A stretch of 64,000 nucleotides of DNA from contig OZ260663.1 of assembly GCA_965285935.1 (NCBI GenBank), positions 87,544,001 to 87,608,000 of the forward strand. The letters are read 5' to 3'. The notes below the pieces were generated by a model. It made no database searches and was not told the DNA's origin. It saw only the letters and a list, made by a program, of their open reading frames with translations. This DNA is from Ophelia neglecta (taxonomy: Eukaryota). Numbering within the stretch: the first letter of the stretch is position 1; the number at the start of each line of letters is the position of its first letter. Below, piece by piece: positions 19,055-53,035 of the stretch. The translations under genes were made by a program, and so were the position numbers.

Positions 19055-19125
19055 ACTCACCAACTTTAAACCAAACGGAAACTGCAAAATGTTACTTACC
19101 TGAAATAGAAACAACAAAAGTATAA
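19055..19125 (-). other. Recursive splice site (junction 19100|19099) with 39-nt RS-exon 19099-19061
   Basis: Minus strand reads cttttgttgtttctatttcAG|GTAAGTAacattttGCAGTTtccgtttggtttaaagttg|GTGAGT. Confidence 0.75.
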
Positions 19126-20387: not shown

Positions 20388-20561
20388 CAATGGAACCTGA
20401 CTTAAGAACCAACTCTATAATCAGACCATCTGTCAATTCACACCATAAATATGAGGACCATGCTGTATACTTTCAATGTCAAATAACCTAAACAGACCAC
20501 CTCCTACATCAGACCAACATTTTGCAGTCCTTTTGGTGGTATTAATTCACAGGTTTCATTG
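20388..20561. mobile_element. 174-bp MITE, Tc1/mariner/pogo type
   Basis: Imperfect TIRs CAATGGAACCTG ... CAGGTTTCATTG, flanked by TA on both sides (20386-87, 20562-63), with internal repeated AGACCA motifs. Confidence 0.78.
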
Positions 20562-23389: not shown

Positions 23390-23900
23390 CAGACATTAAA
23401 AACGTTTGGTTGTATATCGTTATTTTTGTATCCGTGCATTATAGAACCGTAGAAGAACTTATTTTGCTTTCTTTTACAAATTGCCGCTAACGTTATTCCA
23501 TTGTCCAACCGAAACATATTTCCTCTCAATTCCGTAAAATGCAGACCTAAGCAATTGTCAAGTGGAGTAATAATATCTTCCAAGACAGGGATATACGGAC
23601 CTGGCTTTTGCATGCCAGTCGGTTCGGAAGATATATTTTCCACTGAAAAATATTCAAATAAATTTAAATAATAATTTTCTGCCTGCTCTGTGTCAAAACG
23701 GACGTTGGCCAACTTATTTTGTGGCTGAAAATATCTTCGTCCGATAAAAAATACTTCCAGGTCAAAAATTTGTGCTGTACATATTCAGAGCCGCGCTGTC
23801 AGAAAATGTTAACCTACAGTTTCTCGTTGTCAGGTGTGGCGTTATTCAGATTAGAGAATGGACCAGTGATTACCTACATTGTGCTAATCATCAACGGACA
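23390..23900 (-). pseudogene. Possible decayed peptidase C76-like (herpes tegument deubiquitinase-like) domain of the kind carried by some invertebrate mobile elements
   Basis: The 108-aa frame contains LDNCLGLHF...GITLAAICKRKQNKFFY, upstream of where FDSH would be expected, and is preceded by YFLSDEDI. This is pattern resemblance only, and the catalytic motifs are not intact. Confidence 0.28.
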
Positions 23901-24769
23901 GGTGCTTATACAGCAGAGCCTGGTGTTTGGATTTGGATTTTTGAGGTTTAACGAAACATTAGCACCATGTGAGACTTAAAGAAATGAATAAGCAAATACT
24001 TCTTTATTGCAGTGCTAATACAATGGAAATGAAGTGTAAGACAAGAAATGGAGCAAATGAAAACGGCCCATTGATATTAACCTGCAGCTAAATAACACTA
24101 TCCAGGCACGCCAATATAAAAGGTCCCTATCAATGATAGGAATTGTTTATCAGGCTGAAATGACTTGGATTTCCGAGGCACCAATTTAGGTCATCACAGA
24201 GCAATAATATAATAGACATTGGGTCCCCTATTCATCTTTGCATGGTGGACACGGCAGTTCGTCGATAAAGTATAAATAGGTAAATTTAGTGTTAATGGAT
24301 CTACCCCGGAGATGCAGAGGATTTTTAATCTATCAAAAATCATACCATTCTATACCATAACATAATGATAAATTTGAATCATTGTTTTTGTGCAAACCAA
24401 GTGGACCACCAACATCCGAGATACAATACCGACTTTCAGACAATAAACCACCGGATACCCTACACGAAAGGCACAATCCTTAAACAAGAAGAATCCCCTA
24501 AATGATTCCAAAATCAACAGGTACCACCAGCATCAAGCTCAAAAGCATCGATCCTAAGCTCCCACAAAATGAATAGAATTGTGATGAAACAAATGCCCTT
24601 ATTTACTTAGAATTCTTTCAGGTACAACGTTTATTGCCTAGTGCTGATCCCTTAGCCTAAAATTACTATTAGCGATGCAGTACTATGGAAGTGTCTCCGC
24701 TTAATGACATTGCCATGGACTCGACAGTTGTTGTGGTGTGTGAACGATAACTATTACTGATATTTTAAT

Positions 24770-26150
24770 CTCAGTTTGGGGCAGTCCCCTGGTGGTTCTT
24801 AATGATTCCAGATCTTTCCAATGGACTATTCAGGAATAAAGATTTGCTTTGTCTTCCGGGTATCAACACCCATTGTTTTAGAACAAAATAGCAGGGTGTG
24901 TCCGGTCGTAGTCTCTGACAATGGTAAAGAGGGGAATGAGGCAAAACTTTGGGGTCTCAAATTACAAGGGGAGCCTGGAGGCCACACCGTCCCAATCGAA
25001 GAGGGAGGGGGAGCAATTAAACCTACACGGTGCTGCTACATCATGGTCTTATGGGTAATTCAAAGCCTATACAAGGAAGGGTTTGCAATTTTTTTCTTCT
25101 TACAGTGCTAAGCCATCATTATAGACTAAAATGGAAATTTCCTATGATTATATGAATTGATAAAGTCAAGTTTTTGTCTCATTCATGAGCTTTGTCTCTT
25201 ATTATTTTTAACCATTAATGTCAAATTTCTATAGCTGAACTGGTGACATTTGCAACGATTATCTGTGTGAATGGCATTCCTAGGAAACGTAAGACAGACT
25301 TGAAAAAGTATCCCAGTTAAGATGTTCTAGCAAAGGTTATAGGGTCGCTTTGACAGAGGAGAATTCCTGACATTATCACGTTTTACCTTGAAATAGCGTT
25401 GCCCTGGGCGTTTTTATGACTTATTGGCTTCCTTATTACATGGCCCTTTGGCACGAATCTGACCGCCAGTCATTCATTTCCATGTTCCATGTTCAGTTGA
25501 TTTATATGCTACCGGAAATTGCAACTCTTAAACAAAGCGGCTCTATTATTTGAGAATGTCAGAAAACAGAGCTCCCAAAGGTCAGCCCAATTTGAGGTTA
25601 CGAGGGTTAGACTGTACGACTTATTACAGTCAGTGATTGTTGAGATATCAATTAGTCATTTTACACGAGCATATCCATCCCCTGGGTTATATTTTATCAG
25701 CGACCAATTGTATCCTTCGCCATCAATACTTTTGTGTTTATGGGTTGTAATTAATGAATATAAGCAAAAGTAATGAGGGAAGTTACACGCATGGCTTTGG
25801 CCCGTTCTCTACCCCATAAGGAATAGATACAACATTTTATTACATCATTCCGGGAATGGAAATCCGACAACAAAGCAGACATTGGCCAAGAACCGTCGAA
25901 GACAATAACCAAGCTACAAGCAACCCTCAGCAATATTTACACGCTGTTTGACATCATGACAGATACGCATTTTTTCTGACTACTCGATTGCGCTTCATAT
26001 TTCAATATAAATCATACTACAGTTTATCCAGAACAGCTTGTGGCTCCTGATGATTTCAGGCTGATTTAAAGGGCCTCTCTTCATTAACGGTTTTGCTTTG
26101 TCTTCTGGGTATCCTCTCCCGTGTTGGGATGGCTGTGGTTGGCGGTTCCT
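24770..26150. repeat. Two diverged copies of one ~130-bp segment (~24770-24900 and ~26020-26150)
   Basis: TTTGCTTTGTCTTCYGGGTATC at 24843 and 26092 (21/22 identical). A second block, GTGG.TC.T.ATGATT.CAG, lies 51-52 nt upstream in both copies. Confidence 0.7.
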
Positions 26151-29100
26151 GTATCTCGTTTTTTATATGCTCGATAACTAATATATAATGTGTTTACCGG
26201 GTGGCCATTCCCGTTTCGGCAACTACAAGGATATGATGCAATAACTGGATAAAGGGTTCCTGGTAGTGCATGGCTTCTTTAGAATGGAATGTTAGGTTAG
26301 TCCTCGATAACTTTATTAGACTTCGTAAATATACACGGGCACATTACATGCAGGCAAACAATAATAGGTCACTGCGGAGCATATTTAGTAAGGTTTGTTA
26401 CTATCTACCTTACATGGCTATTATATAAGCCATTCCCCTGTATTTGTACCGAAAGAAAACTTTGTTACAGTGTAAGCCATTTCGTATCGGCCTTAAAGAA
26501 TATGAACTGCTGTCACAATGCTATACCATTGAGAAATGTTATCCTCGTGTTCAAATTATCTTGTGGTATTATTGCTACTCTGAGTTCGTTGACCTGCAGA
26601 AAAAAGCAAAATCTTTACTCGAGAATAGTCCTTCCAATTGTCCCGAATTCCAAATAAATATATATATCAGCGCAGTAATAACATGAACAGAAATTCCTTT
26701 CCGTCGTAAAAAGCTGAGTCAGCCATTGTGATAAGTTCCATCCCCTTTATTTCCATACCGCTAACTCATCACATACTCTTATCACGCCAATGTTATAAAT
26801 AGGCCAATTCTTCACCCGATAATCCTAGCAATCATCCATCCATGTGTAATCACATGGAAAGAAAATCGTCTCCGTCGTTAAGCTTCAAGAGATAGGCCAT
26901 TCACCCATATCATCACATAATGTGTTTGCTAGAGGGCATTGACTTGCGGTCATCTCAGTTTTTTATCAATCGCACCATCACGTAATGCCGTAGTGCGATA
27001 AGGAGGAGAATTATGGCACAACCCTTACAAGGCTTCATGTTATTGCCGACAGGAAAGAGCTTTAAGGTTCATCCGAACAATTACACCACACTTTCAACCT
27101 ACGGACACTTCCAGATATTTTTAGAATACACCTACAATGTATGAGGGCACTGTCCACGACACTTATAAGGGGCGCTTCAAGTACACATCCATTAATATTT
27201 ACCATCCGGGAAATGACCTTAAAATATACAAAAGACTAACAAGTAATGGAAGACTCCTGTTGAGTGAGATTCATGTTGGTCCTGCTTATCTTAATCATGC
27301 AACTAGAAGCAGGCCACGACTGCCTCGAGGCTTGTGCTGTCTTAATACCTGATTTTTTTTTGTTTTCAGTAGGCTACAATAATTGATAAAATAGGAAATT
27401 CTGAACAACGCCTTACTATATTCTGTGGTTCGTAACGTCCAGGTATGCATTGATCAAGTCAATAAAAAGGGACATCACAATTTTGACTAAACTCGGTCGC
27501 ATATTCAAGACAACTCTGCACATAGTCTCACGGTACTGTAAAAGCTTAGTCCATCAAAGAGGCGCCAAGGGTATCTTTCTTCTTTGTCTTATTTTGACTA
27601 CTGACTCATATGTTTTGTGCTCTGGGTCGCACTATGTAAAATTGACAACTTCACATTGCAATTAATATCGAATATATTAAAAAAAAAAAATCCGTTACGA
27701 CTTTAAATATACTGGTAGGAAGCAATGAAGACGAACGATACTCGCCTGATTTATTTTTAGACAGACAGAAGTGAATTGAACCGGCACATGCGCTCTAATA
27801 CTCACTGACGTACTTATGAACAATGACCGCATCCACACTTTAATTTTTTTTTATTGGATTGTAACTGTAGATTGTGTGCCAGTACCTATTGAAATATATT
27901 CTTATTTCAAGTGTGTTACGTGATAATAATACACGCCTAATCTCCTTCGTGAATGAGAGGGTTTAAACAAAGAATTGTTCAAACCCGTCCTAGTTACAAT
28001 AGCGCTATGAAAGAAGAGTCTTGTTGGGTAAATGACAAAAGAATCAAGGTCAGCGAGAGGAATTATTAGATATTCGTTCTCACGTTTCTCGATTGATTTA
28101 TTTTATGTGTGTGGACTAATGGTTTCGCTTTGTATGCCGGGTGTCGACTCATAGGTCTCATTACTCAACAACAATATGTGCATTCATGTATATGCATGTA
28201 TATAATTAGTATACATCAGTGTGGTGGTACTTTCTATTGAATCTAAGCGTCGAAACGCTAAACGCAACCATTTTTATATTAATGTTGTCAAATTAGCATG
28301 AAGTCCCACTAACACGCTGAGTAGGGCCAAAGGGTAAAAATTCCGCATATTTGTATGGATACAGGGTCATATTAAAAGGGTAAAGTTTGAATAAAAGGTA
28401 AACGGCAAACGCTTAATTAATTCCGGTTGGTGAATTTATCATCGTTAACTCAAATAAGAAGTAGTCATATATCAGGATCCACCAGACACAGGCCCACATG
28501 CATCAGTCTCCAGCTCCCACACTGTAAATAAACTAACACTGAGAAAAGCAATTACTTTCTAAACCCAGATATCCTAAGAATATCAGGGCATTAACTTCAA
28601 GGTCAAAGGCAAAATATTGGTCATTCAGTTAAATGATGTTGTTATGTGGACGATGCATGAGGACAATTGCGATTCCTTGTAGATTCTGGTTCATGAATAA
28701 CCTCTTAAAGACCTTGATTAAAACAGAATTGAACATCACATTTTGTTGCTTGTGTTTATAAATACGCATTTATCTGAAGGGAAGCAATGGTGCGCGGAAT
28801 GAATAATGAAAAAGGGTACGCTAACGTCTATCGGTAGACAGCTGATCTTTTGGACGGGTATTTGTCGAATTTGAATAGTGTAAATTTCATGGCGATTGCT
28901 TAATTTGATTGTCTGAGGTGCATATTTAGAAATATACAGATTCAGTCGCCGCTAGTACACACTTATAGGGACAAATGTCCATATGTGTCATCGATACGGT
29001 TAACAATTCCTATATCTAAGCCCATCTCTATTAAAATAATATATGTTTTGGAAAATGTTACTGCCCATCGACTTGAAAATTAACGCATACACTATATGAA

Positions 29101-32100
29101 ATGAAAAACCCGCAGTTTATCAGCTAAACCGTCATCAGCATTAGCTAAATTAATACTCCATATATTTATGCTGTCTTTGAATGCTTTCTGAAGAAACATA
29201 AACCAAGATGGATTTCAATTACCAACATCATAGAACTAATAAAAGAGCATCAAAATAGAGTTTCCACCTACAATACGACCATAGCGACCACTCTCTTCGA
29301 AGGGAGGAGATAAATGTCAAAGCAGTGTCTCCCATAAAGCGCAAATTCATTCCAGACGGAATGGATTTTCTGTCCCATTTTATGGATTTAATGTTCTTTA
29401 TTGTTAATAAGCCATCAATAAATACTTGTTTTTAATGAAAAAGTGCTCATTTTATGAATGAAACTGCAGCAGCAGACTCATTGTGATAAAACCCATTTAT
29501 TAAGTAGAAATAGATAAAAACTATTTAATCCTCAACAAAGGAAACTCATCCATAGTAAGGGAACTGAGGACTGCTGCTTAATGGCCTGCCCCTGAAGGTT
29601 CCCGATGAATTGGGGCCAATTTAATGGACTTTACTTAATTAATGACTTGTCTGTCGGAAATCCACTCCTCTCGTTTTTATTCGTTTTGAGAGTGACGTTT
29701 TGTAATCAGTGGCATAAAGGAAAAGACAAGAAATGTAGTGTTGCGCGTATGACCTGAGGTAACGAAGTAACGTAAAAATATGCCTAGTCTCAATTTTTTT
29801 CGATTTTGTCCCTCTAGGTGCTCTATAAAATACCACTGAAAAATCCGTGAAGTCACTTGTACCATTAAAAAAATAATCAATAATCTTTGCCTAACGACTT
29901 GAGATATATGGGAAACATATGGGAAACATCGAGGATGCCTGCCGACTCCATTTGACTACTACGTCATGCATATATATACCAAATGCTACTAGAGCCTAGC
30001 CTTATGACACAGCGCCTGCAGGGCCTTAACCTCTCCATGGTCAGGGCCTAGGCGCACGGAATAATTTGACCCACCCATTTCCGTATCCAAAAGCGTTCAG
30101 AGACTTAAACTGTGTTCACAACCGCGACATACGAACTCAACCATAATAGGTGGGTCGAGGACGATGTTAGCAGCGTTGAATGTATAAGAATTGATTTTAA
30201 TTATACTAAACCAATTTAGCTTGACAATTATTATGAATAATAATAATAGAATGTTATTTTCTTCTTCTCACTTTATAATGTTTGGCAGCCCTGCAAAATG
30301 AACTCAGCTTGGATGGAAAACCATTGAAATGAAAATGTTTAAACTAATTGCGTGGAGGGGAGAAGGGTACATAAGCGGTTAAATTGTAACCATCCTTTTT
30401 TTTAGTCGTAATTGCTAGTTCCTATGGACGAAGGTGACAATAAAACAAATATGCTTGACATGATTTTGAAGCCGTCACATACGCTTTCAAAACTACAAGT
30501 ATAGGTAAATTCAGCCTAATATACACAGGAAAGCAAATACCACTTGCGGAGGAAAAAAATATACCGTCGTGTAAATGTACCTTCACGTCTTGCATTCTGA
30601 AACCCGGAAATATTCATTATTTATTTGTACACGCTGGGCTTACCTAAAATGGGGCTCACATCTAAGCTAAAACAATAGAATCTTTGTCATTTTAAATATG
30701 CGTGAAAAAATTGACATATGCATAGCTTTGCCCCAGACAACATATTCAAATATATATATAGAAGTTGTTTCTTTCGTGGAGGTTGAAAATATGAAGTTGC
30801 CAAATCATAAGTGTCTTTTCAGCAAATAGCGTATGGCCCTTTCATAAAGCCCGAGTAAGAAGGTCAAAAAGGCAATTTAAAGGAGATTTGGTTGCATTCA
30901 GCTAGTGATAATACACGAATGTAACCTTTTTTTCGACTACTACACATGTGCTGAAGGACACTCTTGAAAATGCAAATTCGTTAAGACGTCTTTCAATTCC
31001 CTAGTTAAAACCAGATATTCAGAATATTGGATAGTAGAATACGTATCACGGCCTTCTTGTTTCTCTTATATTTATAAAATGACTAGGACCATATTATATT
31101 ATGAAGGTCCAGTCACGTTATTTGGCTCACTATTTCATATGTGTGCAATACATAGCTAAGGTAGAATAAGGCATCACCAGTCAAATAAACGATGAATGAA
31201 CTACAGATAAGCTTTGCTTTTGGGCTTCTATTCCTGTCTCTGGGACAAAGCAGTATTGAATACATCCTCTTTTATCCGAAACGAACATTCATTCAAACTG
31301 GTATACTAGCCTTGATGACCACAATATTGAAAGTAACAATTCTGGTCAAATGATACTGTTAAGTAAATGTATTAAGTAGATTAACCGAGTTTTTCAGCTT
31401 CTTGTTGTTGGCTACAGGGCTGCCTGAACCAACTTATCAACCCTATGTTCACAAGAAGTCAATATGATCAGTGGAATAGGCTTATTTGCAGTTCTTATAA
31501 ATGAATGATTCGAAGAATAAACACTAGAAACATGGCGAATTTCTGGTTATATGCTATGCTATTCTTGTGTTATTCAGTAAAACTGCTTGTGATTGACATC
31601 CAAATTGCGTTTTGACGGTTGATAAAATGCCTGCAAAGGGACCATCAAATCAGACTCACTAACTTGGCACTGGAAAGCATTGGAAACCAATACAAAAGAA
31701 ACAGAAATAATCTTCGCTGATCCGCTTAACATAGTATTGGTATTAAAATTGATACCGAGAAGAATATTTTACTGGCAATAATAGCACGATCAATGAATAT
31801 AAGTTAGATCGGAAATTTCTTTTCCTTTCTTTGTAAGTATGACCATTGGGCAAACATGTGTAAGTTAAAAAGCAACCTTATAAACTTCCGATGTTGGAAC
31901 TTGTTGGTAATACAGAAAAGTCGTGATGGATGAAATGAAAGCTGCTTAAATCAAGAAATTCAATGAATGGAATTAAAGTGGCTTGGCTTACTGAGGCAAA
32001 TATGCAATAAAAGTCTCATTATCTGAGTAAGAACGGTCCAAAAAACGACATGAGGGAAACAAACATATAGTTTTTAAATACACGAATTCAAATTATATAT

Positions 32101-34839
32101 TAAAGACTCGGAACATACGGTATATTTAGATATTTGTTACTAAAGACTTTATGTAGTAGCATAATTCTAGAAACCGGAAGTAGGAACGAGCCGGCAGTAA
32201 ATTGTTTTTGCGTCACGCCCCTTGTTTCTTCTATTTACAGAGAAGGGCAGTACGTGATAAGAAAAGTAGGATCACTTTGAGCAACCGGATTCTGGAGTTG
32301 ACCAGTCGCTACGCAAAACCATCGCACAATTAGGGCTTAGGTCCGGTAAACAACTTTGTTGTTTACTTGGCCACTTGGTCGTAATTGTCAGCAGTCATTC
32401 ACTTACATTACATTCCCAATACTATTAAGTTCTGCTTTAAGACTACATCCTTGGTCAATGCGGTAATGTTGGCAATGACCTGTTCATTGTAACCCAAGGC
32501 AAAGACCATTGTATCAGGTATAATGTGAAGTTGAATAAAACTATACACATTTATGAAACAAGTCGTATTCTGGGGAAAATTGGTCTGCTTCTATACCGGA
32601 TTTTGAATGATATTTTCAAGAGGCGGCATAGTGTTTTCCTGGAAATGGATTGTCATGGTAATGGTTCTACCTTCTAACGTTCTGTAGATATAGGTATAGT
32701 TTAAAAACAACAGAATATTAGAAGATGAATTAATAACTCCGCTCTTGCGTTATGTGACTTCTCACATTTCCCCTGTTTCATGTGCCTTTCTCGTCTGAGT
32801 TGTAGGTATGCAATAAGAAGAAAAAGAAACAAGTGCCTTATCGCAACAAGAATGTTGAGTAAGAAAATATGTTGTTGCCTGGGGAGGCTACCCTGGATAA
32901 TGGACAGAAATCAATCCTTATCTCCCATTCTTTAATGAGAACAACTGGCGCTGATTCTTTTCGTGTTGTCAGGTAAAAACTTAAAAGAGACACAGTCGAG
33001 CAGCTTAGCATTCCAAGGAAATCATATCATCGCTTAATCGGCTTGTATAGTAATTCTGACAAGTTGCTCAATATGATCACTGAACGGCATAGGGCCACAT
33101 AAAAAATCATTATAAGCAGACAGATATGTGCCATCAGGAAATAGACAGTTAAGTGAGTGTTTCTTAGGAGTAGAGTATTTCATGCTTTGGCATGCGGGTG
33201 TTTTGTGCGAACAAAAAAACTTAGAACTGATTTGTGTTTCTCCACAGTCGTTAAGACAGCGGGTTTGTATTTCAACAACAAAAAAGTCATCTTATCTAAG
33301 AAACGTATCTGCAAACAAGGCACAAGTGAAACGTATACCATCTCTCCCCTGGCAATCCGCTAGAGCGGTAGAATTGCTTTCCCGCTTCGGCCTGCGTCCA
33401 CTATAGTAGACCTTTTTATAGTAACACTATCGGGCTAGTAGTGTTGTTTTAGAACTTGGTAAATAGTAATCAGCATAATTCCACTGGAATATGTTGGAAG
33501 ATGCTCAAATGGCATTTGTAAGGGCGCCTCTAGTGGACAAAATCATAGCCAGAGCTGGAAGCATATTAGAGCATAACCACGTTGAGGTAAGCATACACCG
33601 GGACACAGATTCAGCAGCCAGACTTTAGAGCATAGAGATTACGTTTGCAGACAGCATAAAGCTTCCACAGTTGTGACAGTATTATTTAAATTGTCTGATC
33701 AATTAAACATTTGACATTTAGATACTTTGTCTAAGTGTCTTTGAATACATTTGGTCCTGGAAATTGTTGTCTTACAATTTTCCGATAATACCTGCTTCCT
33801 ACACTCTAAGGAAGATATGAAAATGTTACATGAACCATTTCCATTTTAATCGAGGCATGCCCAGAAACAAAACACCTAGGCTGTTAAGAAATAGACGTAC
33901 ATATTGTGGGCATTAAAATCAAGCGTACTATATAGAACAAAAATCATTAAATGAGGGTATGATGATTGTAATCACCTACAATATAGTCCAGCCCCTAAAT
34001 CTTCTCTATTCTCCAATCTGAAGATATATATACTAATACATATGCACATGCACAGAAGCCTGCGTGCACAGACGAAATTCATGTTGTGATAATTCGTAAG
34101 CCCCGCTTCATGACGAAAAGCCATGTTCAAGGCAAAGGCAGCAATCGGTCAACAAGCCATACCAGTATGCCATGATCCGTGAGCGATAAAGACGACTCGA
34201 CAATACCCAACAGTCAGACAAATGATCAGTGAGCGATAAAGGCGGATCAACGCAAGCAGCTGAAACAGCATTGAAATGTCAACTGCGAATGGGAAAAGCT
34301 CTCGAGGCGGAATAACAAGCCTGTTATGTGGCTTCTGTGCACTGTCATCTTGGCAATGGACTACGAGCCGTTTAAAATCGAATATATGACCTTTTGTTAA
34401 CAGTGCCAAAGAAAGGTGGCAAATCATAAAGGAATCGATGTCGTTGCGCTTTATCACTATAAAAGTAATTACATAAAAAGGCTTCCTACATTAAAAGTTT
34501 ATCTCGAATCCAACACCCATAGTATTTCAATAAACTATAAAATATATATACATTCCACCTATAATGATAGGCAACCAAGTGAAAAGGATACCCCAAGAAA
34601 GTTGAATAAAGATTAATTTTCATAGTAGCCCACGACTTCGGCCTAGGAATTCCTGGAAGAATACTACTTGTCAGCATTAACCTGTATCCGGAACATAATA
34701 CACTACACCAGGTGACCAAATATAATCTCAGTGACTTGAAACGTGCATGAAACACAGTTAATGTAATCAAATAATTACTGAGAAATACTGAGATATGTTC
34801 ACATGAGCACAATTGCCCGCCTTCCTGTAATTTTCCTTA

Positions 34840-35850
34840 CGAAATCTTTGTAATATCCGACAAATTCTGACAAATTATTTGTTATCATGAAACATTGCAA
34901 TTAAGACCCGAATTATAAATCCTAGAGAACCCTTACCCAATCGTTGCAATAAAAGATTCAAATTCAATTGTTGCTTTATTCCCTGTTCTATTTTCATAAA
35001 ACTGGTTCATACATTCTGAGAAATGTGAACTTTGTCATATGAGAACGATGCCTTTACAAAACTTCAAAACATCGGGAGATCTGTAAGATTCTTCGAAATA
35101 TTTCGTCATATTTGACATTTTATGACAATATCTGACATATACTGACACTATATTTAAAAATGTTGACAAAACTGACATAATGTTGCGAGAAGTTTAGTGT
35201 TTACAACTTCATAAGAACATGTAATTAGTGGCAAGGCCCTTAGGATCTTATTACAACCCCAGGGCTTAGATAACATTATTTCGACCAAGTGATGTATTCT
35301 AAGGGAAGAGATAGATTTGGGGTGCGGGATTTCAGGATTCACGCACCCTTTCATAAAAAATCCCGCCTTAAACCACATCCTACGCCCGGGTCAGCGTACG
35401 CATATACAATATCCCAATATAACAGTTAGGCACGGGTGTTTTCAAACGTGCCACCAAATGTTTGTAATTTAATGGAATTTGTGCGGAATTTGTAAACATT
35501 TAGTTAGAATATGTAAGAATATGTAAGGTTTGACGCGTATTGTGGAAAAGGCGCCAAGGTTGGTTTATAGCATGTGCCGATCTGAGATGCAAAGACAGAT
35601 ATCTAACTTGGTATTTTTAACAGTTTAAAGTGAATCATTCATATTTAACAGATACAGTTCTCATAATATGTCTAGAATTTTAAAGAACACGTCGGAAATT
35701 GTAAATGTATGTCAGAATTTGTAAGAACTAATACGATAATACGTAATTGTAGAAAAGGTGCCAAACTATGGTTTTGAGCTTTTTTTTTCGAAGACATAGA
35801 TTTCTAAAGTCACTTTCTAATGGTTTTGATTATTCCAAATTCATATGTAC
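34840..35850. repeat. Degenerate 10-bp periodic repeat in inverted arms, plus ~220-bp tandem duplication
   Basis: CTGACAAATT-like units at 34855-34876 and 35100-35180, with reverse-complement GTCAGAATTT/GTAAGAATAT units at 35460-35530 and 35690-35727. TTGT.GAAAAGG.GCCAA occurs at ~35540 and ~35747. Confidence 0.6.
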
Positions 35851-36529
35851 CTGAAGGATAATTTATTTCCATAGACCAACAACGTCTTTTCGAGACCTTC
35901 CCAAATCTGTTGTCACTTACTTTCGCTATTTCTCACATGTTTCGAGATATTGGCCATTTTACGCCTGTGGGTGAGACAAGGCGCTTGGCAAATACCGCGG
36001 ATTGAGAGATAGCATAAAATGTGGTTCCAAGTATCATCTCTTGTTCTTGTATAACCAACACCTTTTTGCAGAAGAAAGGTCAGAATACAGACGTTGTAAT
36101 CAAAATGTCGCCTTTTGCAACCAATATTATATTACGAATGACTAATATGAACCATAACCTTTGTGTTCAATGCCTTTGTTATAATTATATCTAATAATCT
36201 AGTGGTAAATCTATTGTTATCTTTTAAGAATAGCGCGGAAGAATCCGAGGTTATCAATGTAATTCACCTTCTATCAAGAAGAAAGTAACCACAAAGAACC
36301 AAGGATTATTACGGAATGTAAATCGTTCCCCAATAGATCATTATATTTCCGTTATGATGCTTTCCGTACGTGTGCATAAAACAAATCATCTCTGTTCTAT
36401 AAAGACCCCGCTGTCCTGAGATGCTTCAGATGCCTTTCTATCGAAAAGCACTGTCCCAGCCCCGGGATACTCCCAGCTGACCCGAGGCGTAACCGATATA
36501 AAACTGATATAAAAACAAAGCGCAAATCA

Positions 36530-36600
36530 ACTTACCCTCCCTTTAGAACAAGAAACTGCGAAAGATGTACTTACCTGAAAAGAGGAAAAGCACAAATGAT
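36530..36600 (-). other. Recursive splice site (junction 36575|36574) with 39-nt RS-exon 36574-36536
   Basis: Minus strand reads tttgtgcttttcctcttttcAG|GTAAGTAcatctttcGCAGTTtcttgttctaaagggagg|GTAAGT. Confidence 0.75.
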
Positions 36601-37729
36601 AATACATTACAGCAGACATTAAAAACAATATATAATATATGGAAAAATATCTTGGCGAATTGAATTTTATCATGTCTAGACAGCAAGCTGATCTTATTTA
36701 TAATACATGTATATAGAGTTATTCTCACGAAATACTGTAACCAGCCAGAAATGTATCTCCAAATATTGCTTTACAAAGTTTATTTACAGGAGCTGGTTTA
36801 ACGCTGAATAAGACAACGCTACCTTTGAGTCAATGCAAGCCACTCAGCTGACAAATAATAAATGTCTATAGTCTTTGTAATACATCCCCCTTTCCTGGCA
36901 GCGTCGATATGAACAAGTCAGGTCAAAAAAGTGCCACATGAGCGACAATGTTTAAGTGAGTCGACCTTGGTGAAAGTGGGCCTTGTATTATGTATTGATT
37001 ATACCGCGAGTTATGGCTTCTAACAAGAATGGCTGCGCACACTTAACGGCCTATTGTAGCCTTATCGTCTTGATGGCATGTCGTTTATGTAATTATGCTT
37101 CTGTTGGCCTTTGTAGTCTCAGTATATATCATTCGAACCATTGGCAAATATCGAGGCAGGCATACGTGGTCCAGTACATAGCAATATACCTATATATAAC
37201 AGATGATTGACAAATTGCACAACACATTCTAACGTTAGAGAGTATGAGTTATCGTTAAACAATTCCTCTCAGAGGGTTTACCCAAAGACCTGGTTGGTAT
37301 GTGGGTGGGGGTGGCTGGGGGGGGGGTCCTTCCCACACCCTTGGTATGGCTCCGCCCAAGCCTTTGGGTGATCCTAGATTCACTGATGTGAGGGTTCTTG
37401 GATGATTTACACACGGATGCAATGTGAGAGGTTTTTGGCATCTTTTTAAGAGGCAGAAGTAATCAAGTACTGTGCAGTAATTCAATGCAATAAATGTAAT
37501 GGCTGACCTGCGTACAATGCTTCTGACATTTTTTATAAATCAATAATATCACTTATGAAGTGAACATCATACACCTTTTTCAATAGGCCTAATGCTGTTC
37601 TATCTTTTAGAAAAGCGCGATTAGAACGAACTTAAATTTAGTTAATATACTGCCCTAGGTAATTTGAAGGACACTGCATGACTTTTTTTCTCCATAGATA
37701 TTATATCTACTCGTATAACATGCTTATCA

Positions 37730-37765
37730 AGTTTAATACTTGATATTAGTTTAATACTTGATATT
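37730..37765 (+). repeat. Perfect 18-bp tandem duplication
   Basis: AGTTTAATACTTGATATT x2. Confidence 0.9.
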
Positions 37766-38649
37766 TGAGAGAAAGTGGTGCAATTATTTCGGAAAAGTAT
37801 GTCTCAGGCAGACCCATCACATATAGGAAATCATCCACAAAGACCTTGCTTACAAATGCTTAAAATACCTAGCTTAAACTCGGGGAAATATAGGATACAA
37901 ATGGACATATCTAAAAATTTAATCCGTTGATATAGTAATGAACTTTTTAACAAAGTTACCACCTGGGCGCTGCCTACTTATATAATAATGTTTGCTCGAG
38001 TCCCAAGTAAAGGATCATCATCTAATTTTGTGAATAACGAGATCTGTTTTTTTTTTAGAAATGTCAGGATAACATATAACAATCTGGTATTAAGCAGTTT
38101 CCATTCCCATTTCATTTTAGTTTATTTGTAAGCTTCGATACTTCTGTAAAAAAGTAAAAATAAGTAACATTGCTTCTGGTATTTTACCATGATTAAAGGT
38201 CCGTTTAGAAGATTACTAGCCTTGATCGCGACTGAGCTACGGGATATAATGCAGGAATTGACATTGACCAATATGACCCGTTCACCTTGAATCTGAGTAA
38301 GCATTGTGTCCATCCTCTTTGAAAATGATTACTTTTTCCCTCCTTTGTCATGAAAATTCAATCGCCTACAATCGCCGCCAGCTTCTCATCTTTGGTGACT
38401 GTTGGCCAACCGGTTATACTCGACAGTAAACGCAAGCCGCTCGTCTGCATGAACATGATTTACAGCCAATAGGGTCTGCATTGGTCGTCGGCAAAGTCGA
38501 AAAACATTTTTCAGACCAATCGCCGATATGCTCAGATATGAAGAAAACTATTTTATTTTTGAAACTACAACTGTTTATCTTGCAACATCAAGTTGACTGG
38601 CATGCTGAAAAATGATAATTTGTTTAATGGGCAGCGTAATGTTTTCAAA

Positions 38650-39400
38650 TACTTTTCGTATCTCCTGGCTGATTCGAGGGGATAGTATCTTCACCAAACT
38701 GCTGTTTTTCGATTTCAAATTGTAAAACCAATAGTTCTCCATGTCTACCAAGATCAGATGACATGCAGGATGCTCTTTTGTAAATGGTTCCCGTTTGTGT
38801 AGGTCTACTGTGGCAAGTGTGGTAAGAAGCTTTGTAATTCATTATTCAATTTTCCTCTTGGCCTTAATTTACCTTGACAGTGATCAGTGAGGAGGATGTA
38901 TGGTTTGGTCAGTGTGTAGTGACTTGGTTGCAATTGCGCTACAGAAACAGTGTGCCCTGAAATTGTTATTTACCAAAAGCCCGTTAATAGTACACCACTG
39001 GTTATTTATAGTTGAGAGTATTGGAGAATGAAGATCTTTTCCTGGCTGTTGGTGCTCTTAGACCTACATCAATTGAACCAACAGCCATCTACAGAAATCA
39101 AAGATCTCGCACTGCCTTCATTTCCTCGCTGGCATTAGTCATAACAGATTTATAAGCCACAATATTGGTTATATTGCATGATTTTAATGTTCATTAGATT
39201 ATGGCGGCAAGGTAAAGTTCTAAACAGGTTGGTAGTTTCAGCCTTCAGCCAGTAAATGATGTGTAGCGTCCTGTATTTTGTGCTAGTAGCCACAAAGGAA
39301 ATTGGGGAGAACAGAACCCTGAGTGATCAAAACAATAATTGGACTCAGTTGCTGGCTTAAAGACGACATCGTACTAAATAATACATGGCATTCTCAATGT
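38650..39400 (-). mobile_element. Very degenerate LINE RT relic
   Basis: TQGSVLP at ~39303-39324 (cf. PQGSVLSP). The rest is barely recognisable and the extent is uncertain. Confidence 0.33.
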
Positions 39401-39553
39401 CTAAGAAAGGCCTGCTAAACACCTACAGTAGCACACAGGAAGGAATGGTTGGTAAAGGATAGACAATCCAAACTGAACAAATTCTTTCTATTGAAGAGGT
39501 TGTGAGATGTTTCCTTTCATCCAGATGGTGAGGAAGAGGTTGGAATGCCGTAT

Positions 39554-39588
39554 GGGGGGAGGGGGGTTGGGGGTGGGGGGGTGGGGGG
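39554..39588 (+). repeat. G-tract cluster with G-quadruplex potential
   Basis: Five runs of 5 or more G separated by 1-2 nt. A similar cluster lies at 37303-37327. Confidence 0.7.
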
Positions 39589-42500
39589 TGATCCAGATCC
39601 CCTTTGGGAGCATCCGCTGCATCCCCCACATAGACGTTGCTCTCTCGGGTCAAAACTCGGCAGTTCGCGTATCCAGTCCCGTTCTATCATAGACAGAGAG
39701 AGTTGTCTGGACCAGCAAGCCTCCTCTAGATCCGCCAGCGTGGGATTCGTCGACATCATTAGTGTTCTGGTGGGTCGCAATCAATCAATGTCAAGGGAAT
39801 AGCCCAGCTTGATAAGTCACTCCTTTCCTCTAGATACACTTACCATTCTCACAAATACTGGACGCCACTTGTGTCGGTTAGGCTATCTAATTGAAAGCGA
39901 TCCATTGGATATCAAACGGTAGTTGCCAATAAAGCTCTAACATGAGGAGCAAAACACCCCATCGCCCGTTACCTATAATAGTAAGCATCTGGGAGAGTAA
40001 AGTAGTAATTTAATTTGTTTTCCCACACGCTTTCCACCCTTATTAAATATCATATATGCATTTAATTTATCCATTTCACCTTTTCATATAAAACTGCAAG
40101 ACAAATGGCTTAAATACTGTTTAAACATTGGCTCATAAAACAAGGTATACATTTGCTAAACTAAATTACACGTCCTGTATCGTGGGCCTTTGGTAATCCA
40201 AAGGATTTTGAAGGTAAATCGAAATAGCCCAATTGAAAGAGAACCGTGTCTGGTGGCGTTGGAGAGCATAATAAAGGGGCTAACAAAGAGCGCCTCGCAC
40301 GATAAAAACAGTTATGAGAATGCCATAAACCCAGTGGAATATTGATTATTTAAAGTCCGTCCTGGAATAAACAAGTCGTAGGAAAAATTCACACTGCCCA
40401 TGTTACAGTACCGCTGCATCCTACGCACTCTGCTTAAAACAAAGTGCTTGAGGACCACAACAGCATAGCTTCGTCCAAATAAATGATTATCACCTTATAC
40501 AATATGTATTTTGCAGTTTTCAAATGGTCACAACGAGAACTATTCCGTAGTATAACGTTACTGGTTTTGTTTAATAAGTACAGATTTTCTTTGTTATAAA
40601 GCATGATGAAAAACGAGCACAATTATGAATTCCAAAGCCCATTTTTTTCTTTTCACCGGGTATCCCGAGGAGGGTCTAGATACTTAACTCCCAGATTGTA
40701 TCTGAGGGGCGATATCCACCCCAAATCCTTAAGAACAAACTGACCCTCCTACAAAAGCCAAAGACAATATGTTTCCAGCATAATAAACAGCTTTCTGCCG
40801 CTTGATACACAAAAATCTTATTTTACACTTCTATTTCATCTTTTTTTCATCATAGGGGAGACAAGGATAAACTGCTTTCATGCACCCGCCAGCCATAAAG
40901 CGTGTTTACGGCTGAACCATTACAGAAACATAACAGTAGAGGGCACACACTTCGGGAAGAATTCATTTCACTGATTGATGTGGATACGTGCAATGCGTAC
41001 GAAAAGCTGATGTACATCTAGAGAGAATACCGGCGCTTATCGTTATAGCCGTATTTATAACATCATGTACACCCGAGTGAACAACAACTGAGGGAATATT
41101 ACCCGACAACCAAAGTAATCATCAGTCTCTCTGCATATCGTTTTGTTTACACCTGACCAATATTTAGAATTCCATTGGAGCTAAAGAAAGCTGTAGGATC
41201 CCTTAAATCCCTTTATTTGTTGAGGCGTGTGCCAATAAGTTCATGGCGCCGTATGTTGGTCCTATGTAGCATAACACCAAGACACTTTAAGCATCTGAAG
41301 TGTGATTGACTGAGAGATAAGCTTGCATTGTCTTGGAATACAAGACCGAATTCTCGTTATTTATTTTTCATAATTGACAACTATATTACTGACATCGACC
41401 AATAAAACTTTACCTCGATTATTTAAATAACATGGCAACCTGCTTCTAACAGTGGAAAATTGTGTTTTGCAAATGAGATACTAGCCGTTTTTGAAATCCC
41501 AAATCTGACACTACTGATCACGAATCAACTTTCCTACAAATAGTGTACCTTTTGTAAACACACAGCAGACCCGAAGTTCGTATAGGCAAGCATCGGTGGT
41601 GATGAAAACGGGTGACATTTTATGGATTTCTTGACACTTATATTAATTTGCTAGCGGGCTGTACGAAAATAGACATCGTTGGCATTTCAGGTCGCATATC
41701 CCTTGTGCTAGACGAAGGCACTAAACAATATAAATATATTTATAAGAAGGGCCGTTGCTATGTAAAAACGCATATTACGTGCATAATATGATATAAACCA
41801 CTGGTTTTTCAGCTAAAAACAACACACTTTCCTAACTTGAACTCTGTGCTTAGTTCTAATAGAGCCATCTCAATCTCTTTCAATGTCTTATTTGTTATCA
41901 CATATAATAATGAGAGTTGTGTGATCTCACCGCCGTCTACCCCCCCCCCCCCCCCCCCACAAAAACACAGTCTTCAAGGACGAATTAATGGACTATTCCT
42001 GTACACTGATTTAGCTTTGTCTGCCTTGCATCCATTCACAGAAAATCTACAGCGGAACTCCAAATAGGATTTAATATCAAACGGGTGGTAAATGGACCAC
42101 TTTCGCAGCACCATCAAAGGCATAAACTAATTACACTAGAAGGTATATTAACTCGCTTTGAAATATCATACAAGATCAACCACTGCGCCTACCCGTGGAT
42201 GAAGGAGACTTATCGGTAAAAGGACCTTGAAATATCAAACATGCTAATAATGACGTTTTTCCTTCACAAATGCAGGCAGAAATCGAATCATCTAATTAAT
42301 ATACCATACCATTAAGGTGGCACCTGGTAACAGTTTTAGAGAGAAACAACTGGTTGGCACAACACTACCTATTGTTCAAGCTAGTCTCAGTATAAATGGT
42401 AAGGGTCTTACTACTCTATGTTCGGAAGTGCCGTATTGACAAATAAGGCAGAGATAGTGTACGTTTGTAGCCAATGAACCACTATTGAAAGTAGGATATT

Positions 42501-44439
42501 TTGTACGGTGGTGCCTAAGGTTTCCCATATAACGTGAAAACGTGTTGAAAAAAGCTGACTCATTGTATTCAACGGTGTGTACGATGCGCTATCTCTGTGG
42601 TTCTGCCTGCGGCATGGACTGAGACCGACATGTCACATGGGTTTGTTTTAGGTTATCCTAGTATCATACTGCATCGCCGAGCAGCATAGTAAGCGCTGAA
42701 GGGAGTCAGCCTAAATATGTTATTAACTACGTGGCCTACATGCAAACATTTGCAGAGAAGTGAAAACGCGATGAAATATATATTATGATGAAACGCAGAA
42801 ATGGCAGTGCGAATGCATTATACTCGCGTCAAATAAATATATATGTTTGCTGGCAATGCCGTTACGTATAATCAGTAACATGTATCAGAATATTTGCAAT
42901 ATTTGCAAGGTTCGTGCAAATAACTGTTAATTGCGCCCTTGTAACCATCGATAAAATAGTTATAATGTGATAGTGAGTTAAGTAGATCCGGTATGATTGC
43001 TTTGTGATACTACTTTTCGTCCGGTAACTTATTCTCAGCAATCAGATTAATAAAGTACACTACCATACAGCATCTGGAAATCTTAAAAGTCCACTGGTAT
43101 CAATTTTAATGCATATACATTCTCTGTCGTGTTGCTAACTGTCTACCGCTAAACTATGAACGATCGGCTGGGGTCATCTCTTAATGTATCCTGTATTTGT
43201 CTCTGGGCGGAGTCTCTATAATCTCTGACGGAATGCAGGGTTACTGACGCTTCATCCTGTAACCGGTGGTGAGGTCTTACTCACACATGAATAGGTCATA
43301 AGCCGCTAGGGTACGAAAGGCTCCTCCCATAGAATAAATCATGAACCGAGTGTTATGTGTATAATGGAAAACGTATCTGGACCTATTGATGCGATGCAGC
43401 TTTCGCCGCATTATATGTTTAAGGTAATACATATTCTTGCTATGAGTATGTCCATGACATAATTCAATTTGTATAACCTCATATCAAACTTACCTTAAAG
43501 ATGTTTTGCCGATACTATAAACGGGATAAAATGACGTAAGCAATAATAGGAAGCGTAAATTAGGTACACATGAAAAGCATCATCAGTAGAAAACGATGGC
43601 AACATTTTTATCTATTTGTAATATGCTAGAAAATCAGAAGCTCTGCCTAATAAGCATTCGTCCTGCAATAATTTGACCAAACAGAAGTTGAAAATTAACC
43701 TGACTTTGTCTAATGAAATGTGCGTACAACAATACTATTCGGTTTTTCCAATGTTGTATTAAATGCACAAAATGTATCGTTGCATTATTATGGCACAAGC
43801 ATTCAAATTCATTCATTGTAAGCACATACATCTCACTCTTACAAGATTATAATAAACCTTTGCTTAATGCAATTATCAGCCAATAAGAGGCATTATATCT
43901 TTACCATTCGGTACCAGCCAATAAGGGCCGCGGCGTCTTTGACATGTAGTTCGAGCCAATATGACTCAATGCGTTATCAAAATTGATGCCCCAACTGATG
44001 AAAATTGACATTTAAAATGCATTCCATATCCAACTGTGTTCTCATTGACTAGAAAAATAGTTTGGACGTGAGCAGCAGACCATCAATAAACTGAAACGCC
44101 GGCAATGTAAAATTTGGTGTTATTACTCGCAATCCGAGTTGGAACACCAAAACATGCCAAGAAAAACATGTCAATAATCTATTACTTGTTGAACAGTGAA
44201 CGGAATCACGAAGGAAGCAGCCTTGGAAAGAAAATTGTTTACAGCAGATTGTAAATGCCATTCACAAATAAAACCAGTTTGTTACATAACCTTTTGGCTA
44301 GCAGGTCGTTGTGTTACTGGGCAAGGATGTTTGTGAGCATACAAATTTTGTTCGAAGCGGAACTTTTATAGATACACACTATTCTCAATCGCTCATTTCC
44401 TTGTGTACACCCGGCCTCCATTTTTTGCCCTCAGCATAT

Positions 44440-45200
44440 TACATCAATCATGTGTGAGGCTACAAACAAGACAAATCAGTAAACAGACCATCAGTGAGCC
44501 AGTGATTTATGTTGGACGAAGATATGTCCCGGAGAAAACGATGGCCATACATCTCCTGTGCAGTAGGAAACAAAGATGTCAATGAAGATCTAGCTGATGA
44601 AGGCAGTATATTTGTCACTGGTGATTTCCTCGAAGTGATGTTTTCATTTTGACTTATTTGCATTACAAGTTTACTCACTGTTAGGGCGCTGGAGATTGAT
44701 GTATTGATGTGTGCGTGGGCTTGTGCTTCGTGATTTCGGACCGATTGATATAATTTCTAGATTATTGATTTGGTTTGTTTGCTAGTTATCCACTCCCGTT
44801 TTTTCATATTCGTAATCAGGCAGAATGACATTTTCACTAAATGCTTCGCCGACTATCTATATCTGATTCAGCTCTTGTTTTTCGTCAACACCAGGAGTAA
44901 GAATATAACTTCAGGTCACTTGATTGTCAACGAGATAATACACAGAGCCAACCTATCTCTGGGGGATTGCATATCCAATCCAGTTTGGCAGAACCAATTT
45001 GATAAACGAGTATATTGTTGAAAGGGAAGAGCCATCAGCAGAATTAGGTCGAACCCATTGAACAGTTCATGCTTTATATTGAACGAGCGCTGCGGTCGTC
45101 TTGGAAGTCCAGGGCTGTCCCTAGCGAACACAATGCTGATAAGCCAAATAGTCCATCGCTGCGTCTAAGTCAAACAGTGATTACTGCCCTTTCCGTAACG
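44440..45200 (-). mobile_element. Decayed Crypton-type tyrosine-recombinase DNA transposon
   Basis: Colinear motifs on the minus strand: RRSDGLFGLSALCSLGTALD (~45170-45108, cf. RKKDG..Y...SL...RAALDR), RSFNIKHELF, YEKTG, then SKLVMQISQN...VTNI..SARSSLTSLF...MYGHR (44678-44540, cf. LMK.IS..YTNHS.RAT..T.LF...TGHRS). Catalytic residues are partly eroded. Confidence 0.68.
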
Positions 45201-46659
45201 ACCGCCGAATGCAATTTGGTAAAAATGACAAGAAAAGTAAAATGAGTGAAGTTACAATTGAATAAGAATTTAAAAATTCGTTGGTATAAGGTACTTGTCT
45301 TATATTTCAGCCGGCTGGGAGATCTATGAGAAGCCAACAGCATATTTCAGTGCTCAAGGGCCACGCGTATAGTACATTATAGAGTTACATTGGGTCAGCG
45401 CAAGGGTGTGCACCGCATATATATATCAATACAGAGGTATCTAGGAGATGAACTGGCAGTCAGGCAAGAAATTTGAAAGTTGAAAGTGCCATTAGAACAG
45501 ATATTCATCAGAAAAGACCGTAGGGTACCATCGATGACAAAAATGTACTCGTAGCATCAAATCTGTAATCAATTGCCTGCCCAGTGCGCTCAAATGGCGA
45601 GCGGTATTAACCAACATGTCGTTTTGCCTGCGCGCAAATGGCGGGTTGTCAGCGCTGTACCCAAATGACGTGTGCAGTCTCCGATATATATATATTCCAG
45701 ACTCGACGCCGTCATATAAATGTGAACAAACTTGGTTGGCAGAAGTCATAAATATCCTTGCTCGCCTTTAGGGCTTGTGGTCACATAGACGGGCTCGACT
45801 TGTTCGCGCAAATTCCAGTAAATACTCTCCTAAAAATCTTGCCCACCAAGCTTACCCGGACCCAACTCATTGATGTTTTCAATGAAGAGCCAATTTTCTC
45901 GACAATAAAACCCACATTGTTTTCATCTTAATAGTATTCTCCAAATGAATTAATAAAGTACCCAGGAACGCCTACTATAAAATTTCAGTACTATTGTTTC
46001 AGCGGCTGAACACATACCTTAGAAAACAGAAAGTCATACCTCAGAGAACAGCAAGTAACCGTAAATGTTTCCCTCTCACACAAATTCCATAGTGCCCCGT
46101 GTCTGAGACCTTTTCTCCTATATGTAAATGATATTTCTGACCACATCGCCCACAAATTCTTTTTGACGGCGAAAACACAATCTAACGAGCATTCCACCAC
46201 CCTACTGACAACCCAATTCTTCCTAAAAAACCTCCACTCCCTTCACCTCTGTGCCACAACTTGGCAGGTTGAATTTGAGGCAAAGAATTGTCATCAAAAT
46301 TTGTTTATTTTGACCAAAACATCTAGGGATTACAATAAGGTTTGCATTAAAACATAATATTAGCATAATCATTGTCACATAAAAGAAAGTAGGTAATAGC
46401 AATTATGATACAGTAATTATAAACATTGTTGATTAAGCGGAGCAATTTTGGTCAAGGATGGCTCCCACTATGATATGAAACTGCTAGCGTGGAAGCCACC
46501 CTGTTCAGTGGGGAAATACAGGCAACTATTATCTGACAATGGAATAGCAAAGAAAAAACCCAAGATAGAAGTTATTCAACAATCTGTACTAACCACATTG
46601 TCAATTTTCACTCGAGTGAGACAGTTGCAAATGAATTGACCCAAACAATGAAGAGAAAA

Positions 46660-48150
46660 ACAAAAAAGTGCTAGTTACAGAACTGTTAACATGACTATGA
46701 TATAATTCTTGATATAGGTAGCATAGACTCTCAAACAATGAATGCTCACCTTATGAAGTATGTCATTTGGGCTATCGTTAACAATTCTGACAACACTTTG
46801 TCGTATGCACTTATCTGCGAGTTTGTAAACGGATTTTGCTGGGTATAAAGTAGAGCAGTTCCTGGTATTATGCGACCGGATACATCTATATTGTTGTAAA
46901 TTTTTCTGACAATTTATTGTTTTAAGTTTATGATTAAATTTTAATACGTTTAATTTATATAATTCATTAACATAAAGAAATACTAGGTTCTTCAGAATTT
47001 GCTCGGAATGTGCATTTAATTTGCTGTTAGTAAAGATCTATACTGCCCCTTTCTGCAATTTAGTTATCCTTGAATTTTGAAGACCCCAGGCAAGAATTCA
47101 ATAATTCCTATGATGTAATCTAAGAGTATTGTAAATCGTCACTACAAGAGAGATTGAGGTAGACAATATTTAGTCTGTTTAAAATGCCATTAGCCTTTGA
47201 TATTTTATTTGCCACTTTATGGTCGGGCTTGACCAGTCAATGTTTTTATTTATCAGCAATCCTAAATTAAAATTATCCACAAATTCAATAGAGGTGCCAT
47301 TATTTCTAAATTCCAACTTGGGGATTTTCCTATTCTGGCATAAACATTAGCATGGCCTTAGTTTTTGAAATGTTTAGTGAAAGCTTATTAAGTTTCAGTC
47401 AGCCATTCATTAACTTTCGAAGCTCAAGATTAATATGGCGGCTCACATCTCCAACCACCATGTACAAAGAGGTAAACGTTTGCAAGGTGGTAGTCAATGC
47501 TGTTTCATCAGCATACATGATGGGATAAAATAGGTCACCGACCTTTCAGAGGTCATATGTATAAATAATAAAAAGCAGCGGACCAAGGATTGACCTTTGT
47601 TTCACCCCTGTAACTACATTACTGTGTGTCGACCTTATCCCATCATAGTATGTATATTGTTTCTAGACGAGAGGAGCTGCTAAGTAGATCTAGAGATCGA
47701 GCATTAAGCCCACAAAAATATTTTATGGTAATTCTCCTTTATCAATCTTTTGTGTTACTCAGTCGATAAATTCCAGGGCAATTCAGAGTGCATAGTTCTA
47801 AAACCATATTGGCTATCATTTATAAAAATGTTAGAGTTAAAAAGAGAATACAATTGATTAAAAATGGCTTTTTCGAAAATGTTATAGATTCCTGGAAACA
47901 CTGGTCTATAATTACCCAAAATACATTCGTCATCCTCCTTAAATACAGGGATGATTTTGCTTATCTTAAGCTTATCTGGAAAAACTGAAATAATCGATTG
48001 GTTAATAATACATGTAAGGGGTTCAATGAGTACATATTTTTCTAGTATGAGGATTTTGGTGGACATTCAATCAACTCCGGAACTAGTTTTGGGTTTGAGG
48101 ACATCGATAATTTTAAGAATATCCGCCTGATCAACAGGTTAAAAAGTCAT
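46660..48150 (-). mobile_element. 5'-truncated CR1/L2-clade LINE, ORF2 reverse transcriptase pseudogene through the C-terminus
   Basis: Motifs in order: EPLTCIINQS..FPDKLKISKIIPVFK..NYRP..FEKAIFNQL..QYGFR (48066-47770); GVKQRSILGPLLFIIY and MYADE (~47610-47505); WLKLNKLSLNISKTK; LAWG..RITKLQK..NAHSEQILK..ELYKLNVLKF; HNTRN..ADKCIR..DILHKVSIH..YIKNY. It has frameshifts, stops and an internal deletion at the DLSKAFD region. Confidence 0.92.
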
Positions 48151-48179
48151 TGGTTGGAGGAATTCTTCCTCCAACCAAT

Positions 48180-48420
48180 TACCCCAAACTATCCTGCATA
48201 CCCCACAAGTCCTTTCTCGTAATGCAAACCCATTCCATAGCTCAGCAGTGGTGAATCAAAGCATTATTTTATTCATTGTATCTAAGATCAACCAGAATCT
48301 GGAACCTCCTACTAGTTCAAATTCAAACCGTACCCACCATAACCTCCTTCCAGGCAGCCCTTAAACAGCATTACTTCAGACTATCGCTCAATCCCAGATT
48401 TTTTCTAAAGATATTGTCTG
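48180..48420 (+). mobile_element. 3' end of a second CR1/L2-type LINE
   Basis: YFYSLYLRSTRIWNLLLVQIQTVPTITSFQAALKQHY matches the terminal SFFPRTIR.WN.LP...S...FK..LK motif of LINE ORF2. Confidence 0.65.
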
Positions 48421-52849: not shown

Positions 52850-53035
52850 TGTATGGTGGATGGATGCAGGCTATTATGCTTCAGCGCTTCTTGTTGATAC
52901 ACCTTGCCACATTCCTGAAGTTTATATCCTGCCAGCTTAGAAACCGTATTCGCGCAGTCAAGTATAGGTAAACAAAGTATCCTATAAGCCTTGTTCCCCA
53001 CTTTTTTAGATTTATGTCTAATAAACCACCAAGAC
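52850..53035 (-). mobile_element. CR1/L2-type LINE ORF2 fragment (post-RT region)
   Basis: FIRHKSKKVGNKAYRILCLPILDCANTVS resembles GFIRRN..VK..AY..LVRP.LEYA.TVW. Confidence 0.6.

Follow-up and report, generated by a model that had tools for sequence, protein, structure and literature searches.

Three sites in the 64,000-nt window (the whole stretch of DNA analysed) have a pyrimidine tract and YAG fused to GTAAGT (at 36574, 19099, and 315, all on the minus strand), and they raise the question of what such back-to-back splice signals do inside a giant intron, and why the short cryptic exons that they open are of such similar length. Our analysis indicates that these three, together with two further sites in the same intron outside the window, are probably recursive-splicing ratchet points with cryptic RS-exons, and that their shared length probably derives from duplication of one ancestral site, not from selection for poison exons. 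Coordinates are given in Table 1.

The Host Gene

A neighbourhood of 264 kb without gaps was examined, and within it the exons downstream of the sites encode a PKA catalytic subunit; we take the host to be PKA-C on the basis of PKA motifs. A full-length relative, P0001 (Pkinase), aligns to the downstream exons with 63–91% identity. It begins with a copy of the window exon, matched at 64% identity across the entire exon (E 4.8 in the database searched), and continues with the exon-2 peptide with nothing between. The sequence-only reading had joined the sites to an upstream exon of phase 1, correctly on both counts: the exon at 57254-57128 is a first coding exon of PKA-C (exon e).

Exons a–e form five tandem paralogs over 54 kb and lie 136–190 kb from the common exon 2, a distance that is also the intron length. 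All six PKA-C first exons, the proximal one included, end in phase 1, so that the phase of an RS-exon join is the same whichever distal exon is used; judged from the DNA, all six are presumably transcribed. Exons c and e have an extra in-frame donor 42 and 48 nt further on, respectively. A kinase-core exon is present in three paralogous copies (window scale -94711, -94950, and -96231), which are likely mutually exclusive. For another gene on this contig, named homologs come from molluscs and a bryozoan.

Table 1. Features of the PKA-C locus and of two other host genes (window scale, unless C2 or C5 is named)
Feature	Position	Strand	Details
PKA-C locus	C5:87,469,700-87,654,840 (window scale -74290 to 110840)	minus	six phase-1 first coding exons
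First exon a	110840-110714 (outside window)	minus	
First exon b	105425-105302 (outside window)	minus	
First exon c	85845-85674 (outside window)	minus	
First exon d	76451-76343 (outside window)	minus	
First coding exon e	57128..57254	minus	42 codons + 1 base, phase 1; donor at 57127
Giant first intron, part in window	1..57127	minus	
Proximal first exon	from -74290	minus	unlike exons a–e; 4.9 kb above exon 2
Common exon 2	from -79234	minus	
Candidate RS-exon at 65664	outside window	minus	41 nt; no phase-1 stop inside
Acceptor tract + CAG	36575-36594	minus	directly upstream of RS-exon 36536..36574
Candidate cryptic RS-exon	36536..36574	minus	39 nt, starts GTAAGTA; second donor GTAAGT 36535-36530; phase-1 stop within
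Candidate cryptic RS-exon	19061..19099	minus	39 nt; first donor GTAAGT; second donor GTGAGT 19060-19055
Candidate cryptic RS-exon	275..315	minus	37 or 41 nt; phase-1 stop within
Candidate RS-exon at -20393	outside window	minus	40 nt; no phase-1 stop inside
YGCAR element	36556..36560	minus	+14/+15, in U-rich sequence
YGCAR, same register	19086-19082; 302-298; site -20393; exon e real donor 57113-57109	minus	
Receptor guanylate cyclase	C5:13,983,000-14,247,000	+	seven tandem first exons, one constant region
ERG-type channel intron	C2:8,018,228-8,158,060	+	140 kb, phase 1

Five Sites in One Intron

The same anatomy is found at all five PKA-C sites: a tract and YAG fused to a consensus donor, with a second donor less than 100 nt on, and TT at -5/-6. 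In the window, second donors lie 39, 39, and 37/41 nt downstream, as the sequence-only reading had reported, and its identification of cryptic RS-exon anatomy is supported; site 315 has two non-consensus second donors, GTAGGT at 37 nt (278) and GTAATT at 41 nt (274), and the frame is shifted at either length. The pattern TTYAGGTAAGTA, selected post hoc once the sites were known, occurs three times in the window, always on the minus strand, against a shuffle mean of 0.03 (100 shuffles). Two site cores contain no variants among contigs from one sample, which carries no weight, since less than one was expected per core.

All five sites lie on the sense strand of the intron, and its opposite strand has no strong site. 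Spacing from exon e down is 20.6, 17.5, 18.8, and 20.7 kb. A scan of the final 58.8 kb before exon 2, weak sites included, found nothing convincing, which tells against the recursive reading; from -40407 to -46700 (window scale) this stretch is occupied by a tandem repeat of 6 kb, with units near 38/76 nt.

The intron is likely removed piecewise, as in flies, because it carries five fused acceptor-donor signals that are all followed by a second donor some 40 nt on. By analogy with flies and vertebrates, binding of U2AF/U2 to the tract and of U1 to the donor about 40 nt on would define a mini-exon; joining of the first exon to the mini-exon would then regenerate a donor, and use of this donor in the next step would remove the mini-exon (PMC8605326, PMC6224609, and PMC6110457). 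Ratchet-like sites, at steps of 17.5–20.7 kb below exon e, stand between the five distal phase-1 first exons and exon 2.

The distal first exons terminate in TCT or TAT, which may present a poor exon side to U1. An A at +7 would add a U1 base pair and may help the regenerated donor to compete; it is present in 5/5 PKA-C sites versus 9/34 elsewhere. A crude count of U1 matches gives 7–9 for the regenerated donor and 6.5–8.5 for the RS-exon donor, varying with the first exon, and by this count the second donor equals or slightly exceeds the regenerated one at four of the five sites. Since the two donors are about equal on so crude a measure, some RS-exon inclusion in PKA-C is plausible, and would be non-productive.

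Strong acceptors, strong second donors, and a non-productive outcome in every case are also features of regulated poison cassette exons, which could turn down the distal PKA isoforms without recursion. However, a perfect donor opens all five exons and would be superfluous for a cassette, the spacing is even (about 18–21 kb), and the layout is repeated at unrelated loci; we consider cassette use highly improbable.

Second-Donor Distances across the Genome

The bare acceptor-donor motif is not enriched genome-wide (74 occurrences versus 76 in a reversed control, and 34 versus 41 in another scan), which counts against recursive use and means that true sites must be few. With a second donor 16–106 nt on, the count is 54 versus 11 in the control. 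Removal of 14 rows (repeat copies, tandem units, and double hits) from the 54 left 40 non-redundant sites, with 23 second donors at 34–50 nt, nine at 37–41 nt, and a median of 44.5. When the two PKA rows are left out, 34–50 nt accounts for 21 of the remaining 38, and a distribution equally peaked arose in 1/20,000 uniform simulations. By hand count, a donor at 34–50 nt follows 14 of the 74 bare-motif sites, with about 0.5 expected from the background donor rate (482 in 1.33 Mb). Looser genome scans were dominated by tandem repeats and were used for individual rows alone.

The genome-wide plot of second-donor distances thus bears out a strong excess and shows no narrow peak at 39 nt: the fixed length of about 39 nt claimed from the window gives way to a broad peak at 34–50 nt with a median near 44. 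The five PKA-C lengths nevertheless scatter less than lengths drawn from that genome-wide set (P 0.001–0.005). Chance or unused motifs in an AT-rich intron, a reading with which the parity of the bare motif and its reversed control agrees, receive almost no credence from us in view of the three occurrences in the window against 0.03, the 14/74 second donors at 34–50 nt against about 0.5, and the same-strand clusters in long introns.

Several tandem repeats are composed of 41–52 nt units, each with an acceptor-donor fusion, in few to more than 100 copies (C2:117.40 Mb, C7:12.18 Mb, C7:7.65 Mb, and C9:50.27 Mb). A dispersed repeat also carries such a fusion, followed after 17 nt by a second donor, and is a possible mobile source of these motifs.

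Other Host Genes

Two further hosts were mapped. The receptor guanylate cyclase has sites of 48, 48, and 64 nt in a long sense-strand intron, and the first of the 48-nt exons keeps the frame and contains no stop; the phase (1) was taken from the two nearest upstream exons, and the region contains one assembly gap. Its first exons each encode about 200 aa of ligand-binding domain, in a clustered variable-exon layout, and a 645-aa ORF, which we take to be RING/B-box-like, sits among them. On its sense strand, the intron of the ERG-type channel holds sites of 37 and 28 nt and a possible third of 41 nt, none with an in-exon stop; the three are alike and also resemble sites at C2:10.65–10.81 Mb. 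Host genes were sought for the sites at C2:10.7 Mb, C9:7.4 Mb, and C5:11.1 Mb and were not found. The mapped host introns (PKA-C, cyclase, and ERG) are all phase 1, too few cases to weigh. A tie between RS arrays and variable first exons was considered and rejected; it holds for two of the three mapped hosts, and that of ERG is an ordinary intron.

Stop Codons in RS-Exons

The sequence-only reading had found that all three exons in the window terminate when joined to the phase-1 exon, and they do; in the joined frame the stop is codon 53 for 36574, codon 45 for 19099, and codon 54 for 315. At 19061..19099 it comes right after base five of the first donor. Each of the five PKA-C exons, if included, would lead to an early stop at codons 45–61, far above the last junction. 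Three of the five have the stop within the exon, and the other two (65664 and -20393) shift the frame and terminate in exon 2; the join was computed with exon e, though 65664 follows exons a–d, for which the phase is identical.

Such stops are common by chance. Shuffling gives a phase-1 stop with probability 0.54 at 36574, 0.57 at 19099, and 0.60–0.69 at 315, and in the background 152 of 265 GTAAGT (0.57) have one within 39 nt; the original observation carried the caveat that stops are frequent in AT-rich DNA, and three stops are not above chance. Across introns of known phase (PKA-C, cyclase, and ERG), 5/11 sites have in-exon stops, frame-preserving exons contain a stop in three of four cases versus 2.5 expected, and ten of the 11 exons would be non-productive if included, matching the expectation for random sequence. 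Lengths divisible by three show no depletion (15 of 34 sites of 28–65 nt), and phase-1 stops in those 34 number 15 versus 21 expected, a count in which the host phase is unknown for most sites. The claim that RS-exons are all poison exons is therefore reduced to chance level, with stops in five of 11 and one 48-nt exon in frame and stop-free.

These data bear on the proposal that RS-exons are held at about 39 nt and selected for stops so that NMD clears inclusion. The idea of stop-dependent degradation comes from vertebrate work, and the Sibley model, as reviewed in PMC5126111, is in its favour, as are the non-productive outcome at 5/5 PKA-C exons, the stop in both frame-preserving 39-nt exons, and the tightness of the PKA-C lengths (P 0.001–0.005). 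However, both 39-nt stops would occur jointly by chance with a probability of about 0.3, and neither the 5/11 stops at known-phase sites, the three of four frame-preserving exons against 2.5, the stop-free 48-nt exon, the undepleted multiples of three, nor the 15 stops against 21 points to selection. PMC8605326 describes fly RS-exon content as "generally out of frame" and reports that skipping was unaltered when a fly RS-exon was made frame-preserving. Selection for poison is unlikely on this evidence; early stops on inclusion would instead be a by-product of AT-rich non-coding sequence. In-frame coding microexons were likewise rejected, as phase 0 is incompatible with the phase-1 exons and phase-0 stops occur in 3/5.

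Similarity within Loci and Duplication

RS-exons were compared over bases +7 to +34 at 39 sites (34 of the 40 non-redundant sites plus five from local scans). Similarity averages +2.4 within loci (16 pairs) versus -2.0 between loci (725 pairs), a difference equalled in 0/20,000 permutations, or 88/20,000 without PKA. The signal comes from three of the seven multi-site loci (PKA, ERG, and C2:10.7 Mb), with none in the other four. RS-exon length differences are smaller within non-PKA loci (5.9 versus 10.8 nt). When a consensus site detected later was compared with the 39, its own two neighbours took first and joint second place; a second such site had one neighbour in second place, with a weak match to its own locus, and a third, weaker site had no match among the compared sites.

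Direct traces of duplication were found for two pairs. One pair, 42 kb apart, shares 711 bp at 90% identity over the site, within a collinear multi-kb duplicated block (C9:7.40–7.46 Mb) that adjoins an assembly gap and for which no host gene was found; the members of the other pair lie 39 kb from each other, have 418 bp in common at 70%, and lack a consensus second donor. This suggests that sites spread by local duplication. For the PKA-C sites themselves we propose the same descent, which is likely although only a core of about 70 nt is common and the flanks show no similarity outside it; the sites may have been multiplied by tandem duplication of intron segments, with selection keeping the core alone. 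Head-to-tail intron duplication, in which the sites would be copies of the real intron start, fits one PKA site and fails for ERG and the cyclase, and was rejected as a general account.

An element YGCAR, picked after the sites were seen, is found in the same register at 4/4 sites below exon e, at 4/477 other background donors, and at 0/28 other RS loci. The likeness could be convergent, if each recursive site has been selected for an element particular to the locus and acting through protein or RNA (YGCAR within a U-rich stretch), a reading that is compatible with descent. The presence of YGCAR in register at these four sites and at the exon e donor, its rarity in the background, and the dissimilar PKA-C flanks are consistent with convergence. 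Against it, the post hoc motif is missing at site 65664 and at the donors of the five remaining first exons, the exon e donor overall resembles only one site (rank 33 of 478), and in the ERG and cyclase genes the real donors show no resemblance to the RS-exons. Pairing of exon ends with RS-exons is also weak (duplex energies of -5 to -13 versus a background of -6.7 +/- 2.8), and a hairpin between first-exon end and RS-exon was rejected, the energies being mostly background-like. Convergence appears decidedly unlikely, and we retain duplication of an ancestral site as the preferred explanation.

A broader formulation is that ratchet points are themselves duplicating units: introns growing by tandem segment duplication would gain one ratchet per copy, and hence locus-specific RS-exon families of one length and one donor-side element. 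We advance this tentatively, as a possibility that is on balance doubtful.

Comparison with Known Systems

Drosophila ratchet points with cryptic RS-exons include Ubx-RP, kuz, Bx, and luna (PMC8605326, PMC6110457, and 10.1101/006163). Features common to the fly and PKA-C sites, the latter known from DNA sequence alone, are the fused acceptor-donor, TT at -5/-6, a second donor within 100 nt, several sites per long intron, and content that is usually out of frame. According to 10.1101/006163, TT at -5/-6 is found in 196/197 fly sites and fly segments average 17,953 +/- 9,039 bp, a mean that the PKA-C segment sizes match. The exons here, in a host that is likely lophotrochozoan, are slightly shorter (median 44) than the "variable, ~50 nt" given for flies, and RS-exons of one locus are alike, whereas fly RS-exon content is described as poorly conserved. 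Fly sites usually have the stronger regenerated donor, in contrast to the four of five PKA-C sites at which the second donor comes out equal or slightly stronger by the crude U1 count, a point against the recursive reading.

Vertebrate cryptic RS-exons of the CADM2 type would have in common with these sites exon definition, competition between the regenerated and downstream donors, and early stops on inclusion (Sibley 2015 as cited in PMC6224609 and PMC5126111). About ten such sites are given for human, as against some tens here at strict stringency, with up to five per intron; stops are not enriched in the RS-exons here, in contrast to the vertebrate CADM2 type.

Human PRKACA (1-1/1-2) and PRKACB (1-1 to 1-4 plus a, b, and c) have alternative 5′ exons (PMC3625193), and like this locus join several first exons to one common exon 2. 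Unlike the human genes, five of the six first exons here are tandem paralogs over 54 kb, and ratchet-like sites are found in the 136–190 kb that separate them from exon 2.

A literature search (with subscription papers outside its coverage) found no report of recursive splicing in annelids, molluscs, or other spiralians, and no relevant paper that combined recursive splicing with variable first exons or with duplication or origin; PMC6224609 names no lophotrochozoan among the species compared. Recursive splicing with cryptic exons in flies and vertebrates, and alternative 5′ exons of PKA-C, are thus already known, and the resemblance of RS-exons within a locus, in sequence and in length, is new here.

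Significance

The stop-codon analysis is a useful negative result, in that no special selection is needed to explain stops in RS-exons. Family likeness among RS-exons offers a testable answer to the questions of how ratchet points originate and why they are evenly spaced, and the PKA-C array, with five sites in one conserved signalling gene, is well suited to testing for recursive splicing in a third lineage beyond flies and vertebrates. If our reading is true, recursive splicing would be extended to lophotrochozoans, and duplicating ratchets would let distal first-exon arrays (six exons in PKA-C and seven in the cyclase) sit 100–200 kb from their constant exons.
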